From Octopus vulgaris (Eukaryota), in the NCBI GenBank assembly GCA_951406725.2, contig OX597828.1:70618001-70682000 (forward strand): a DNA stretch of 64,000 nucleotides, read 5' to 3'. Below, piece after piece: positions 5,556-64,000 of the stretch. Position 1 is the stretch's first letter; the number at the start of each line of letters is the position of its first letter. The notes beneath the pieces are model-generated. The model did no database searches and was not told the DNA's origin. It saw only the letters and a program-made list of their open reading frames with translations. A program made the translations under genes and the position numbers.

Positions 5556-5952
<397 letters not shown>

Positions 5953-7129: not shown

Positions 7130-7568
7130 GGATCTTTTCTAAAAGATGGACAGAATTTCTACTTAACTAAATAATTTGAAACTTCGTGTATTGGTAGAAT
7201 GTGTCAAAAGAAAACATTAATTTCAATTAGTTTTTATTGGGCGACGAAATTCATCGATTTAAGAGATATAGCTGTTATTTCTAGCACCTGCAGAAGACAG
7301 AAGACAGAAGAGAGAAATGATGGATGAATAACACGTGTGCGTGTGTGTGTGTCTGCTGTTTACTTAGACACAGCAACTGAATTTAGCTCAAATGCTGGGA
7401 TTTCATTGGTTAAAATTCGAAGAATTAAACTACGTAAAAGTTACAAAAAACAATTTTCTCAAAAAAACTAATTGAAATGAATGTTTTCTTTTGACACATT
7501 CTACCAGTATACGAAGTTTCAAATTATCTAGTTAAGTAGAAATTCTGTCCATCTTTTAGAAAAGATCC
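7130..7568. mobile_element. MITE with ~105-bp TIRs and 8-bp TSD
   Basis: GGATCTTTTCTAAAAGATGGACAG... mirrored at the right end; CATTTTTA duplicated at 7122-7129 and 7569-7576. Confidence 0.85.
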
Positions 7569-22107: not shown

Positions 22108-22291
22108 TACAGGGAGAATTCACAAAACAAAAACAAAAGACGAAGACAGGTGGTGTAGACAACAAACAGATGTATTAGTAAAAGGCTCGGGAATTGAAAA
22201 AGTCTTTAACGTTTCGAGCTTACGCTCTTCCACAGAAAGGAACAAAGAAAGAAACAAGGAGAGAAAATAAAGAATGTGTAGTGGCTAGCGA
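22108..22291 (-). mobile_element. Hammerhead-bearing element in (TA)n (family H1), core mutated
   Basis: Near-identical to 51701-51888; CUUU CUGUGGA A GAGC GUAA GCUC GAAA CG UU/AAAG. Confidence 0.7.
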
Positions 22292-22297
22292 TATATA

Positions 22298-22388
<91 letters not shown>

Positions 22389-22389
<1 letters not shown>

Positions 22390-22552
22390 GGCGTAGGAGT
22401 GGCTGCCTGGTAAGTAGCGTGCTTACGAACCACATGGCTCCGGTTTCAGTCCCACTGTGTGGCACCTTGGGCAAGTGTCTTCTACTATAGCCTCGGGCCG
22501 ACAAAAGCCTTGTGAGTGGATTTGGTAGACGAAAACTGAAAGAAGCCCATCT
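22389..22552 (+). mobile_element. SINE family A head
   Basis: GGCGTAGGAGTGGCTG...GGCACCTTGGGCAAGTGTCTT. Confidence 0.85.
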
Positions 22553-22564
22553 TATATATGTATG

Positions 22565-22622
<58 letters not shown>

Positions 22623-22977
22623 TTTTAAGTTTATCTCTACAGATTTTCGATAGAGTTTAAACTACATACTTATACATATATGCGTGTTTGTATAAATATG
22701 TATGTATTTGTGTATGCGTATGTATGCGTCTATCTGGGCAATATATCAAACTTTGACAGTCTATTCAGCTATAATTTTTTTATATAGTTAACATACTTAC
22801 TTACTCTGCTCAAAGTATTGAGTTCTATATCAGATAATGTTTGCACAGCGCAAAATATATATCCAAGTATGCATCGTAACTCTTACATTACGGTATGTAT
22901 GTATGCATGTATATATGCATGTATGTATGTATGTATGCATGCATATATGTATGTATATATGCATGTATGTATGTATG

Positions 22978-34100: not shown

Positions 34101-34254
34101 ATCAGTTGTTTTCCACCTTTTTTTTTAATCCCTATTTCATTCTATGGACTCCCACAACCATTCGATGTACATCAACAAAAAAACCCCACGGTATTTTAGA
34201 ATTAAAAGTTCTTAAGAATTGTATAAAAATTTTTTAATGCTTTGTGAATTTTTT

Positions 34255-34655
34255 CTTTTATTCTTTTACTTGTCTCAGTCACTTTGACTGTTGCCATGCT
34301 GGAGCATCGCCTTTTAATCGAAGAAATCGACACTCGGACTTATTTCTTTGTAAGCATGGTGCTTATTCTATCGGTCTCTTCTTCCGAACCGCTAGGTTAC
34401 GGGGACGTAAACACACCAACATTGGTTGTCAAGTGATGGTAGTGGGGCGACAAGCACAGACACAAACACTCACACACATACACACACACACACACACACA
34501 TATATATACGACGGACTTCTTTCAGTTTCCGTCTACCAAATCAACTGACAAAGCTTTGGTCGGCCCGAGGCTATAGAAGAAAACACTTGCCCAAGGTGCC
34601 ACGCAACGGGACTGAACCCGGAACCATGTGGTTGGGAAGCAAGCTTCTTACCCTA
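34255..34655 (-). mobile_element. SINE family A, near full length
   Basis: Head to tail match to other copies. Confidence 0.85.
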
Positions 34656-35252
34656 CCACCTGATGAGGTCTTCATCTGAGCGAAGACGAGTTGAGGGAAA
34701 TCATTCTTGTCAAATGGCAACCAAATCCAAAACTATTCGTTTCCAGTAATCCACGACCCACGGAGCCCTCCACGGAAAGCTTTCACACCACAGTCCTTGA
34801 GTCCAAGGACACATCTATCTCCAACAAGTAGCGAATGATAGCAAAACATTGATGGTCAGTGCGTCTATAATCCACAGTATTCACCGCGGAAAGTAGACGA
34901 TTAACCATGGAAACGCTGTTCTAAACACTGAACGGGTACAAAATAACACAAATAGTACACACTAGTCTCAAACAAATTTAGTCATCTGATGAATGATGAA
35001 TAAATCAGTCGATGAAACATTGAAATTGCGGATGTAATGTCTATACCAATCTCATTGTCCCTGCTTAATGTACAGAGGCAAGAACACACGCCAACATTAC
35101 TGCGTCCAGAAGATGAGACCACGAAAAGTTAGGAGGTAGTTACACTCTCAAGTATATCTTTGTCCAGAAGATAAAACAAAGGAGATCTGGAAAGGACTTC
35201 ATTTTCTGGATGGTGTATGTATGTATTCACGCACACACACACACACACACAC

Positions 35253-39021: not shown

Positions 39022-39075
<54 letters not shown>

Positions 39076-40482
39076 GTCACTATTTGTGTTCCCTCTTTTA
39101 CGGTACGTCGCCAATCTCCATGGTTGCTGGCAACTACTTCCCAGTTGGCATTTATAACCCTTTTGCAAACATCCTTGTAACGTAAGAACGGTCTTCCCAC
39201 AGACTTAGTGCCCCGAGCAAGCTCTCCGTAGAGTATGTCCTTGGGGATTCTGCCATCTTCCACACGGCTAACATGTCCAAGCCATCTCATACGTCTTTGG
39301 GTGAGGAGTGGAAAAATGCTTGGTATTCCTGCTTGCTTGAAGACATCTTTGTTGGGGACATGATTCTGCCATTTGATGCGAAGGATTTTCTGGAGGCAGC
39401 GCAGGTGAAAGTTATTTAGGCGACGCTCTTGGCGTGTGTATGGCGTCCAAGTCTCACTTCCATACAGTAGAGTGGCAAGTACACATGCCTGGTAAATCTT
39501 CATTTTTGTGGTCTTGGTCAGCTTAAAGTTGTCCCATGCCCGTTTGGAGAGTTGGACCCTCACAGCAGCTGCCTTGCCAATGCGTATATTGAGCTCAGCA
39601 TCAAGGGATAGGTTGTAGGTGACGGTAGAGCTAAGATAGGTAAACTTCTCCACCTCCTGTAGTCTGTGGTCTCCAATATGTATGTTTGGGATGTCCGATG
39701 TAGCCTGACCCATGATGTTGGTCTTCTTGAGGCTGATAACTAAGCCAAAGTCGCTACATGCTTGCTCAAAACAGTCGATGAGCCTCTGTAGGGCTTCTTC
39801 TGAGTGTGACACCAGAGCGGTATCATTAGCAAATAGCACGTCCTTGATCAGGACGCTTCTGATTTTGGTCTTGAACGCAGATGCGAGAGATTGAACAGTT
39901 TCCCGTCAATTCTACTGTGCAGAAACACTCCATCATCTGAGGTCTCAAAGGCATGTGACAGCAGCAGCGAGAAGATGCCAAATATTGTCGGAGCATGACA
40001 CAACCTTGCTTTGCGCCGTTATTTGGAAGGCGGCTGATTTTGAACCATTGTGCTGTATGGTGCCTTGCAAATCAGCATGGAAACATTTGATGATCCTCAG
40101 CAGCTTTGGTGGACATCCGATTTTTTGGAGCAGAATGAAGAGGCCTTTTCTACTTACCAAGTCAAAGGCCTTTGTTAGATCAATGAAGGCCATATATAAT
40201 GGCATTTTCTGCTCTCTGGACTTCTGAAGTTGGCGTATGGAGAATATCATGTCAATAGTTGATCTGCTTCTTCTAAAGCCACACTGCGATTCTGGATAAA
40301 TTCGAGAAGCAAGCAGTTTTAGCCTGGACAGGATAACGCGAGCAAAGGTCTTTCCAACAGTGCTTAGAAGAGATATTCCACGGCAATTGTTACAATCACC
40401 ACGGTCACCTTTGTTTTTGTAAAGCGTAATGATGTCAGCATCCCGCATATCCTGAGGGACTGTACCATCTCCCCAGCACTGA
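38822..40482 (-). pseudogene. 5'-truncated RTE-clade LINE (reverse transcriptase, frameshifted)
   Basis: KNKGDRGDCNNCRGISLLS, PESQCGFR..RSTIDMIF, FIDLTKAFD, LFANDTAL (FADD lost), LLYGSETW, RMRWLGHV; C-terminal YICRTCQKKCLSRI*LHSHSRRC; 3' CCATTGTCTCCCG. Confidence 0.92.
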
Positions 40483-47550: not shown

Positions 47551-48387
47551 TATTTTCCAGGAACGCTGCCGTGATCTCTTTTAGAGAGACTTAGTAATTT
47601 TAATATTTCTATTATTATATAATTTTATATTTTATATAATTTTATTTAATTTCTAGAGAAATTAGGAACTTGGACAGTTGGAAATTCGAACAGCAGGTTG
47701 TTGCGATCATCAAAGAGTTAACAGTGTTTGTATTTGACACCAAGAGGAATTAGCACCGGCAATATAGTTGACACCAACACCGGTTTGGCAGTGCAGCAAT
47801 TCCACACCGAAGTGGCGCCATGCAACAAACAGCCTTCCGGTATTTCAGACCCTGAAAAACCAGACCAAAAAAATTCCAAAGTAAAAATAAAATCAAAGAA
47901 ATTTAAAAAAAAGAAAAAATTAATCAATAAAATAAAATAAATCCAATAAGGAGTAAAAAACAAATAAAAGAAGATTTTGGTATAGAACGTCCCTGTTTAC
48001 TTAAGTCGTTTTTGAAATGTTCAACGACAAAATATCGTTTTGTTTAATGTTAACTGAGCAGATGGAGGCGGAGTAGTGGAAGGGAGAGGGTGGCGGTGGC
48101 GGTGGCGGTGTGGTTGGTGGTGGTGGTTGGTGGAGGTGTATGAGAGAGGGTATTAAATAAGGGAGACACCGGTAAATAGTGACGTGTTTGTTAGTGTTGG
48201 GACAGCATTTAGAGAAGAGTACAAAGGGGGTGGGTGTGGGGTGGAGGGGTGAGAAGAGATATTGTTGATAGGGCGGAGACGTTGCGTTGTAAAGGGATTA
48301 ACGACATCACCTCCCGCGTGCGCTTGTCTATGGGGGTATACAAATATATATAATAAATACACACACACACACACATCGATATATATA

Positions 48388-48766: not shown

Positions 48767-48804
48767 GAGTGTGTGTGTATATATAGATATAGATATAGAC
48801 TCGG

Positions 48805-49321
48805 GCGTATTTGTGTGGTAAGAAGCTTGCTTCCCAACCACATGGTTCCTAGTTCAATCCACTGCATGGCAACTTGGTCAAGTGTCTTCCACTATAACCC
48901 TGGGCCGACCAAAGCCTTGTGAGTGGATTTCGTAGACGGAAAATGAAAGAAGCCCGTTGTATATGTATGTGTGTGTGCGTGCGTATGCGTATGTGTGTGT
49001 GTGTGTGTTTGTGTATCTGTATTTCTCTCCGCACCATCACTTGACAACCAATGTTGGTGTGTTTACGTCCCCATCACCTAGAATGCTGGAACACCGCCTT
49101 TAGTCGAAAAAATTGACCCCAGGACTTATTCTTTGTAAGCCTAGTACTTATTCTATCGGTCTCTTTGGCCGAACCGCTAAGTTACGGGAACGTAGACATG
49201 CTACCATCGGTTGTCAAGCAATGGTGGGGGACAAACACAGACACACAAACATACGCACATACATGCACATATATATATATATATATATATGTATGACGGG
49301 CTTCTTCCAGTTTCCGTCTAC

Positions 49322-49322
<1 letters not shown>
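48805..49322. mobile_element. Tail-to-tail inverted family A SINEs
   Basis: Plus copy 48805-49080 and minus copy 49082-49322. Confidence 0.8.
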
Positions 49323-49360
<38 letters not shown>

Positions 49361-50222: not shown

Positions 50223-51267
50223 ACGGACAGAGAGGGAGTGAGTGAAAGAGAGACAAACAGGTAAACAGTGAGAGAGAAAGAGATAGAGAGAGAGAGATTA
50301 AGACTGCCGTTGTACTAGACCCGAGTGTATAACAGATATTATACTTTACTTCCCTGATCATATTGTGCGGGCGCAAATTTAAGGATGTCATTTCTGAGAT
50401 TTCGTTAAGTATATCGAAACCAAATGTTACAACGATAAAAGTCCTTTCATCCGAGGAAACCTGATGAGATGATGAAAGACATTCTAGCCTTGACTATCCT
50501 GTCATATTGCGTCTATGACTATTAACAGATATATCCTTCGTTTCGGTTTTTAAACATAGGAGGCATTTGGGGGCGATAATCACTGTCGTGTTACACACTC
50601 CACTCCAACCACGACCACCGCCACCACACACACCTTCCTCTAACCACAACTCTATAATGATTCCAAACAATCTTGTTACATAAGCTCTGTAGGTGAACGT
50701 AATATAAAAAAGGTGAGTGGCTTCTGGTGGCGTCATGTTGCAGCAATGGACATTGTGCCATGGTATGTGACGCGATGCTCAGTGCAGCTAGACATCAACG
50801 AAAAGAGTCAGTTCCCAGTAATGTGTGGGAGCACTGACTTATCGTACCACATTTCTTGGTCCAACTACCAATAAACTTCCTTCCCAACCACATGGTTACG
50901 GGTTCAGTCACACTGCGTGGCACCTTAGGCAGGTTTCTACTACAACCTCGGACTGACCAAATTCTTTTGAGTGGATTTCTTAGACAGAAACTGAAAGAAG
51001 CCCATCCTATATATATATATAGTGTATGTGTCTGTATCTGTCTTTGACCCCCTCCATCGCTTGACAACCGATATTGGTGAGTTTGCGTCCCTGTAACTTA
51101 GCAATTTGGCATAAGAGAGCGATAGAATAAGTACTAGGCTTACAAAGAATAAGTCCAGGGGTCACTTTCTTCGTCTAAAAAACCTTTACGTACGTAATTT
51201 TAAAATATGATCAGGGAAGTAAAGTATAATATCTGTTATACACTCGGGTCTAGTACAACGGCAGTCT

Positions 51268-51326
<59 letters not shown>

Positions 51327-51373: not shown

Positions 51374-51623
51374 AAAGTGTACATATCGCCCGTCACTCTT
51401 GTTTAAATAAGATAAGTCGTAACATAGCGTTCCCTTCGTCATATATGCAGTAATCACATTCGGTTAAAATGTCTCATTGGTGCGTTTTGTTTTTCTTTTT
51501 CTTTTCCTGATGAGAAGTTTGCATTGTTTCATATAATTTTATTCCTTCTGGAATAATACCAATGTTTTCTTTGAAACATATGTTGGAAGTATAAAGATTT
51601 GAATAACAACTGCGTTTAACTCC

Positions 51624-51700
<77 letters not shown>

Positions 51701-51702
<2 letters not shown>

Positions 51703-51884
51703 GGAGAATTCACTTAAAAAAACAACAAAAGACGAAGATAGGTGGTGTAGATAACAAATAGATGTAGTAGTAGTATAACGCTCGGGAATTGAAAAAGTCT
51801 TTAACGTTTCGAGCCTACGCTCTTCCTCAGAAAGGAACCCAGAAAGAAACAAGGAGAGAAAATAAAGAATTTGTAGTGGCTAGC

Positions 51885-51888
<4 letters not shown>
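51701..51888 (-). mobile_element. Hammerhead-bearing element in (TA)n (family H1), intact core at 51799-51834
   Basis: CUUU CUGAGGA A GAGC GUAG GCUC GAAA CG UU/AAAG. Confidence 0.75.
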
Positions 51889-53820: not shown

Positions 53821-54130
53821 ACGGGAAGCTTTATGAAAATAAACAAAAGACGAAGGCAGGTTTACGGAAATAAACAAAAGACGAAGGCAGGTGGAATACA
53901 AACAAACAATTGTATTAGTATGGCTCTCAGGAATATAAATAAAACAAGTCTTTTACGTTTCGAGCCTACGCTCTTCAACAGAAAGATACACAGAGAAGAA
54001 ACACAGAAAGAAGGAGAGAAAAAATGCGTGCAGAGGCTAGCGAATCAACATGGCGATCTGATTTCGGCCAGAAGTCAAAGATCAAACGTGAGACGCAAGA
54101 GCGAAATTAGGGGAGATAATAGGGTTAAAT
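53821..54130 (-). mobile_element. Hammerhead-bearing element (family H1-related)
   Basis: UCUUU CUGUUGA A GAGC GUAG GCUC GAAA CG UA/AAAGA; shares AAACAAAAGACGAAG.CAGGTGG with 22108 and 51701. Confidence 0.7.
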
Positions 54131-59039: not shown

Positions 59040-59401
59040 TATTATTTGAGGGAATATTATTCCTAACTTACAGGGAAAAATTCAATTTAGAAATGCTAAA
59101 TCATAAAAATTAGAAAAAAAATGAACAATTAAATTACAGCATCTAGAAAATTACATATAATGGAAATATTAAAAATAAAATAACAATAATATACCAATGA
59201 TTTAGTAAATTGAAAATTAATAATAAAAACGTAAATTGCAAAATAATAATAGAAACGTATCTGCTACGTATTATACACGTTTTTATTATTATTTTGCAAT
59301 TTACTTAATCATTGGTATATCATTGTTATTTTATTTTTAATATTTCTATTATATGTAATTTTAATTGTTCATTTTGAATTGATAAAAAGGTTTTTTTTTT
59401 C

Positions 59402-63315: not shown

Positions 63316-63445
63316 GCTACTACTACTACTACGTTCTCATATATGTGAAAATTATGATGTCTGTATGTGAGTGTACGCGCGTGAGTATGTATATGATTGT
63401 ATACGTACATACGTCCGTATACATACATACACATGTATGAATATG

Positions 63446-63483
<38 letters not shown>

Positions 63484-63485
63484 AT

Positions 63486-63856
63486 AAATATTAGGGAATA
63501 AATCCAAATTTACAGGGAAAAAATCAGATTTAGGATTAAATCCAATTTTATAGTAAAATATTATATAATATTATTAGAGACAAAACCACTATTTTGCAAA
63601 ACAAACAAGGAAAGACTTAATCAATACATAAAATTTTAATAAAAAGTCAAAAAAACCGCCACTACAATTGTTTCTTGTCCTGATCGACAATCTTCAGGTG
63701 GACTTCCAATTTTCAAGTCAGTTTCAAATTATGAAGATTGTCGATCAGGACAAGAAACAATTGTAGTGGCGGTTTTTTTGACTTTTTATTAAAATTTTAT
63801 GTATTGATTAAGTCTTTCCTTGTTTGTTTTGCAAAATAGTGGTTTTGTCTAATAAT
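63486..63856 (-). mobile_element. Penelope-like fold-back element in (TA)n
   Basis: Perfect 119-bp arms 63578-63696 / 63732-63850, containing a hammerhead. Confidence 0.8.
63659..63701 (-). ncRNA. Canonical type I hammerhead ribozyme
   Basis: CCAC CUGAAGA UUGUC GAUCAG GACAA GAAA CAAUUG UA/GUGG: all core nucleotides, 4-bp stem I, 5-bp stem II, palindromic stem III. Confidence 0.85.
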
Positions 63857-63879
63857 TTATATATATATATATATAATAC

Positions 63880-63948
<69 letters not shown>

Positions 63949-64000
63949 CCTGTGTAGGAGTGGCGCTGTCCCAACCATATAAATACTACGCCACCCATTC

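Follow-up and report, generated by a model that had tools for sequence, protein, structure and literature searches.

Structure of the insert and its relatives

The insert of interest, about 370 bases long at roughly 63484-63856, is a stub of a repeat family with (TA)n tracts on either side, and it stands in an AT-rich, microsatellite-dense, apparently animal-like window, by which we mean the whole 64-kb stretch of DNA analysed here (Table 1). It is dominated by an inverted repeat, in which 63578-63696 and 63732-63850 are complementary at 119 of 119 bases (100%) with a spacing of 35 nt. A previous reading made from the sequence alone, hereafter the sequence-only reading, described a perfect 119-bp fold-back; the perfect pairing stands, but the arm really extends to 63570/63856 past a 2-nt indel at the outer end, being perfect over 119 of about 125 nt. 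The two sides are unequal. The left part is a stub of 248 nt made up of the tail (63484-63569), the arm, the ribozyme and 30 nt upstream of it, while the right part is an inverted copy of 125 nt, tail-less and carrying the 2-nt indel near its outer end; the spacer between them (63697-63731) is the 5'-truncated end of the long copy. The inverted arm does start at UGAAGA and omits C3 and the 5' strand of stem I, as had been noted, since C3 is at 63697 and the arm stops at 63696. Regarding the age of the event, zero differences in 119 nt only cap the arm divergence at less than 2.5% (95% bound), and the insertion is thus recent, although the earlier "very recent" was overstated.

Table 1. Features of the insert, its flanks and its relatives in the window
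Feature	Positions	Strand	Basis or remark
Second fold-back copy, same family, (TA)n tracts both sides	5639..5840	+	blastn and arm comparison
Degenerate tail fragment of the family	59047..59092	+	blastn E 1e-5; nhmmer E 0.0014
Left flank: microsatellite, (CT)n followed by (TA)n	63441..63483	.	sequence; insertion probably targeted (TA)n
Tail: 86-nt 3' extension of the element, one end only	63484..63569	-	missing from right arm; homologous to 5768-5840 of second copy, likewise one-sided
AT-rich stretch, putative inner reverse-transcription start	63553-63577	-	at 63562, at least 16 X3 contigs pass straight into (TA)n
Left arm, body of tail-bearing copy; perfect part 63578-63696	63570..63696	-	inverted-repeat comparison
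Type I hammerhead motif, palindromic helix III, predicted dimer-only; predicted cut 63663/63662	63659..63701	-	two-copy minimum-energy fold
35-nt spacer, native to the element and upstream of the core: C3, 5' strand of stem I and another 30 nt	63697..63731	-	family contigs cover spacer in 4/4 runs
Possible 5-nt microhomology TGAAG at junction	63732..63736	.	2 X11 contigs among loose ends listed; weak
Inverted copy, 5'-truncated and lacking the tail; pairing perfect over 63732-63850 and resumed for 6 bases after a 2-nt indel	63732..63856	+	inverted-repeat comparison
Right flank: interrupted (TA)n microsatellite	63858..63945	.	sequence

The second fold-back copy aligns with the insert over 130 nt at 88% (blastn). 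Its arms, 5639-5695 and 5711-5767, match at 56 of 57 nt, its tail is about 73 nt long, and it is ordered as (TA)n, tail-less arm, junction, body, tail and (TA)n. The junction, which bears a 6-nt palindrome, is equivalent to 63615-63626, that is, 70-80 nt from the core, and the copy has no ribozyme. The outer ends of the two copies fall in the same AT-rich stretch and their inner junctions lie 70-80 nt apart; in these two copies the element determines the outer end and the inner junction varies. In the insert it is the side with the tail that is longer, in the second copy the side without it. Both non-degenerate family copies in the window (2/2) have the layout (TA)n-tail-body-junction-inverted tail-less arm-(TA)n, and since the second copy folds back away from the core and without the ribozyme, breaking at the core is no fixed part of the design. 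A target-site duplication is unreadable within (TA)n, a limit also noted in PMC8557442, and direct pLTRs (partial tandem) are absent from both short stubs. One further match, at 47906-47960, was rejected as low-complexity and was not recovered by nhmmer.

The hammerhead motif and the question of an off switch

The minus strand at 63701-63659 reads as stem I of 4 bp, CUGAAGA, stem II of 5 bp with a 6-nt loop, GAAA, a palindromic helix III and GUA. All parts of the type I core (C3-A9, G12-A14, A15.1-U16.1 and H17) and the three helices are present, which confirms the claim of a complete hammerhead with a predicted cut between 63663 and 63662. Composed after the motif had been seen, a generic type I descriptor matches 2 places in the window, and only 1 of 300 dinucleotide shuffles had any match (mean 0.003); a loose plus-strand match at 51502 failed a stricter descriptor.

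The motif is hardly a "textbook" hammerhead, as the sequence-only reading had called it. With the Rfam hammerhead models there is no match at or above the gathering threshold in the window, nor among the 34 matches at E<=10 in 63400-64000, and stem II is closed by U-A instead of G10.1-C11.1. The G10.1-C11.1 closing pair is a preference and not an absolute rule. It is described as highly conserved in the hammerhead motifs of Penelope-like elements (PLEs; PMC4209133), and our literature search, limited in coverage, returned nothing direct on the effect of the 10.1-11.1 pair; the U-A closure makes the motif a small hammerhead variant. In predicted folding of one copy, the monomer hammerhead fold (-5.5 kcal/mol) lies above the minimum (-6.6 kcal/mol), and for two copies together the fold of lowest predicted energy (-22.2 kcal/mol) is the dimeric hammerhead itself. 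Helix III is an 8-nt palindrome predicted to be stable only between two molecules. The folding model thus predicts that the hammerhead shape is reached only as a dimer, like that of metazoan PLE ribozymes. According to PMC4209133, a lone PLE-type motif with a small palindromic helix III showed no cleavage in vitro and multimers little, and the lone motif here is probably inactive as well. No direct repeat of the motif occurs in the window, the single sense motif having no second sense copy to dimerise with, and no open frame follows it. The GUA triplet is found in natural hammerheads and is slower than GUC (PMC1636495).

The sequence-only reading also proposed that a read-through RNA would pair the ribozyme with its own antisense and silence it, which could be a built-in off switch. 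The burial itself is predicted: read-through RNA of either strand folds into a hairpin of about -207 to -208.5 kcal/mol, with a pairing probability of 0.000 for stems I and II. Nevertheless, this effect is trivial, because without the inverted arm the predicted probabilities are already low (0.003 for stem I and about 0.03 for stem II) and a lone motif of this class was inactive in vitro, so that burial by the hairpin is nearly redundant. That the arm was selected as a switch which sequesters the ribozyme and feeds dsRNA silencing is therefore a reading we give hardly any credence. Apart from the predicted loss of the ribozyme fold, it may draw on Drosophila, where inverted copies of Penelope yield siRNA (PMC3681739), but the same source reports that these siRNAs did not silence Penelope efficiently. 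Moreover, a stem of 119 bp that is always present could never be switched on, the one other fold-back copy of the family in the window has its break at another place and lacks the ribozyme, and no host gene is evident nearby, the open reading frames of the window being only simple-repeat frames and a LINE-like reverse transcriptase (RT) remnant. Within the limited coverage of the literature search, nothing direct was found on a hammerhead silenced by its own inverted copy. A reading as a miRNA gene was rejected too, in that the Rfam miRNA-family matches are below threshold and reflect the bare hairpin.

The family in sequencing runs and the junction

Part of the stretch is present in 20 of the 24 sequencing runs listed, from 9 studies. 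Four of the runs (X2, X3, X4 and X11) were compared with 63484-63760 only, at 80% likeness, their contigs being mostly of 60-130 nt. The matching contigs number 1360 in X2, 2745 in X3, 2043 in X4 and 138 in X11, where depth is not to be read as copy number, and with 138-2745 contigs per run in 4/4 runs this is a very common, high-copy repeat family. No run among those containing part of the stretch is recorded as RNA; X11 is only guessed to be RNA, and we took family contigs from it but no measure of expression.

In all four runs the summed depth declines toward the 5' end of the element, with a steep drop upstream of the ribozyme. The X3 contigs that run from the element straight into (TA)n at 63562 (at least 16) mark the tail-less end. 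Compared with a common shorter variant of the family, the insert has 4 extra bases at 63711-63714, just upstream of the ribozyme, and its letters at 63644 and 63680 are minority letters, with 4-30% and 0.7-28% of the depth across the four runs. Both arms carry these two minority letters, which indicates one template or one donor subfamily. Among the letter changes listed, only one lies inside 63659-63701, namely that in loop II (63680), and a single site is no proof of structure.

As for the junction itself, no bridging piece occurs among the best 32 of 6330 pieces and no joint among the matches listed, so that independent support for the exact junction is suggestive only and the breakpoint spread is that of two copies. 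Word shares of 0.95 and 0.91 are no proof of the junction either, as only about 1.7 of the 21 sampled words are expected to span it. The depth across 63744-63760 is 137.5 in X4 and 2-3 in X2, with none in X3 or X11; the depth of X4 and X2 here, where the 15 two-place contigs of X3 are not placed, suggests junction-bearing contigs.

A possible reason for the position of the break is microhomology. Two X11 contigs, from among the best 24 of 173 loose ends, stay matched as far as 63736, and their loose parts agree at only 0.58; the nearby depth fitting an end at 63736 is about 91% in X11, about 24% in X2, 1.6% in X4 and 0.2% in X3. These loose ends hint that TGAAG, with which the arm starts, is also present in the native sequence upstream, and such a 5-nt microhomology may, on this thin evidence, explain the break at the core. 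If it holds, the position of the break can be given no more closely than to 5 nt, and complementarity accounts for it. It is conceivable, though we hold it unlikely, that the ribozyme core is a hot spot for folding back, where native CUUCA 35 nt upstream pairs with UGAAG and leads to repeated joining and to self-limiting hairpins that make siRNA. Were this true, hairpins decapitating the ribozyme would be seeded genome-wide and would provide siRNA against the element's own end repeat, and the joining step of Penelope integration would be exposed.

Penelope-like identity and the origin of the fold-back

In our analysis the insert is very probably a dead-on-arrival PLE end-repeat insertion, in which two truncated copies stand head to head in (TA)n; the fold-back probably arose as a by-product when they integrated. 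The sequence-only reading had offered a by-product of Penelope-type integration as the other possibility besides an off switch, and it is well supported, for the layout, the one-sided tail and the (TA)n target match published PLEs. What is observed directly is the anatomy with its one-sided tail, together with the second copy and the high copy number, and the family itself is most likely PLE. No RT or GIY-YIG frame is present in the stub by ORF inspection, and pattern searches of metagenome, prokaryote genome and viral contigs for an autonomous or coding partner gave 0 loci; membership in the PLEs is consequently argued from non-coding anatomy.

According to PMC8557442, published PLE insertions are 5'-truncated, often adjoin an inverted truncated copy, have a tail at one end and are biased to (TA)n. 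The same traits are found here: an inverted 5'-truncated copy adjoining the 5' end head to head in 2/2 non-degenerate copies, a one-sided tail (86 nt in the insert and about 73 nt in the second copy), an end-repeat hammerhead, flanking (TA)n on each side of the two copies, and 5' truncation of a dispersed multicopy family as judged from contig counts and the fall in depth, which gives no copy number. Endonuclease-bearing (EN+) PLEs, namely Penelope/Poseidon, Neptune, Nematis and Hydra, as described in PMC8557442 and PMC3846280, share with the insert the head-to-head inverted truncated copy, the tail on one side, the (TA)n target, the end-repeat hammerhead and the many short copies; the insert differs by having no ORF and by a tail of 73-86 nt, about twice the 30-40 bp given in PMC8557442. 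Taken together, the (TA)n bias and the hammerhead would point to Neptune or Hydra and not to Naiad, which is described as having no canonical hammerheads.

The comparison with metazoan PLE hammerheads (PMC4209133) is similar. The type I fold, the 4-bp helix I, the intact CUGANGA/GAAA, the palindromic helix III and the dimer-dependent fold are shared, whereas stem II here is U-A-closed and lacks the usual bulged base and G10.1-C11.1, and the triplet is GUA. In that work PLE hammerheads are characterised by a small palindromic helix III and occur as pairs on opposite strands 100-700 bp apart. In the Anolis Poseidon element PAc, studied in vitro (PMC11167929), both strands of the target are cut and extended by the protein, which favours AT-rich DNA and begins reverse transcription at two sites bounding the tail, and the hammerhead is protein-assisted and dispensable in vitro. 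The ends differing by a tail and the AT-rich target are common to PAc and the insert; the PAc ribozyme overlaps the ORF start, in contrast to that of the insert, and the inverted junction is not reconstituted in vitro in the reactions which the available text of that study describes. Rotifer Penelopes are reported with inverted pLTRs, junction palindromes and microhomology joins (PMC3846280). A squid genome paper reports hammerhead loci and Penelope repeats (PMC6962438), which shows only the commonness of such motifs in marine invertebrates. Animal non-LTR retrozymes are likewise short non-coding, hammerhead-bearing PLE derivatives (bioRxiv 10.64898/2026.07.22.740005), but a reading as a retrozyme was rejected, since these are described as head-to-tail tandem arrays and the insert is a single head-to-head pair with one sense motif.

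How the two copies might have come together is inferred as a two-cDNA priming scheme. The element endonuclease would nick both strands of the TA target, and RT would prime one cDNA from each of the two opposite nicks. The cDNA begun at the outer start site would become the 248-nt copy with the tail, and the one begun at an inner site, which lies 75-85 nt further in, the 125-nt copy without it. After both had stopped early, their 3' ends would be joined, possibly via a stretch of 5 complementary bases in which the ribozyme core happens to lie, and fill-in would then produce the palindrome. The hammerhead would simply travel with the end repeat; to work, it is predicted to require another sense copy, with which it forms a dimer, and perhaps an element protein. 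For the joining step, self-priming during integration would be an alternative; nothing on topic for twin priming in Penelope was found in the literature search, whose coverage is limited.

The palindrome could also have arisen in other ways. If a tail-bearing stub had been there first and the inverted arm had been added later, or by self-priming in integration, through fold-back or template switching, with gene conversion keeping the arms alike, identical arms sharing the minority letters would be expected just as well. Self-priming has indeed been proposed for the inverted junctions of PLEs (PMC3846280), and the palindrome at the junction of the second copy would fit it. In its element-independent form this explanation leaves unaccounted for both the same AT-rich arm end in the two copies and the X3 contigs joining (TA)n at the tail-less end, and in the form of self-priming during integration it is a mere variant of the PLE explanation by two truncated copies; we regard it as improbable. 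An assembly or library artefact, such as a fold-back chimera, could be suspected from the missing bridging pieces and joints among the matches listed, from the two of four runs (X3 and X11) without depth on 63744-63760, and from the remark in PMC8557442 that inverted-copy structures trouble assemblies. A chimera would mirror through the tail and the left flank, but the arm drops the tail, has a 2-nt indel and enters a different flank; the second copy repeats the layout, and the depth of X4 and X2 suggests junction-bearing contigs, one run possibly being from the source sample. An artefact is accordingly very improbable.

Being short, with inverted arms and of high copy number, the insert also resembles a MITE or fold-back DNA transposon. 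Unlike those of a MITE, its arms are unequal, variable in length from copy to copy and meet near the middle, with an extra tail at one end. The insert is real and is accounted for by a known class, most likely the PLEs, and its family may already be catalogued. As one of very many truncated retroelement ends it changes nothing alone. The origin of the inverted ends of PLEs is still described as open (PMC8557442), and with a young and abundant family, a long one-sided tail and readable junctions, counts of junction microhomology could weigh two-sided priming against self-priming.

Other repeats in the window

Several other repeats are found in the same window. A member of an unrelated family, about 187 nt long and flanked by (TA)n tracts, occupies 51702-51888, with relatives at 22113-22291 and 53873-54043. 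The hammerhead motif of the first copy (51835-51799, minus strand) is a classic minimal PLE-type one, with a bulged A, a G-C closing pair and the palindromic AACGUU; the CUGANGA box is intact in 1 of the 3 copies, and an inverted arm is present in none (blastn). Perfect 67-bp terminal inverted repeats (50298-50364 and 51204-51270) enclose about 840 bp within (GA)n tracts, the flanks being also mirrored; the element holds a SINE-like piece and is possibly a non-autonomous DNA transposon. Inverted repeats of 106 bp at 96% (7130-7235 and 7463-7568) surround 227 bp in a MITE-like arrangement. On the minus strand at 39072-40300 there are broken, microsatellite-interrupted frames of a LINE-like reverse transcriptase, which may be RTE-like by motifs. 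Short interspersed repeats are abundant and often split by (TA)n, for example at 978-1303, 22291-22703, 34254-34660 and 48778-49326.
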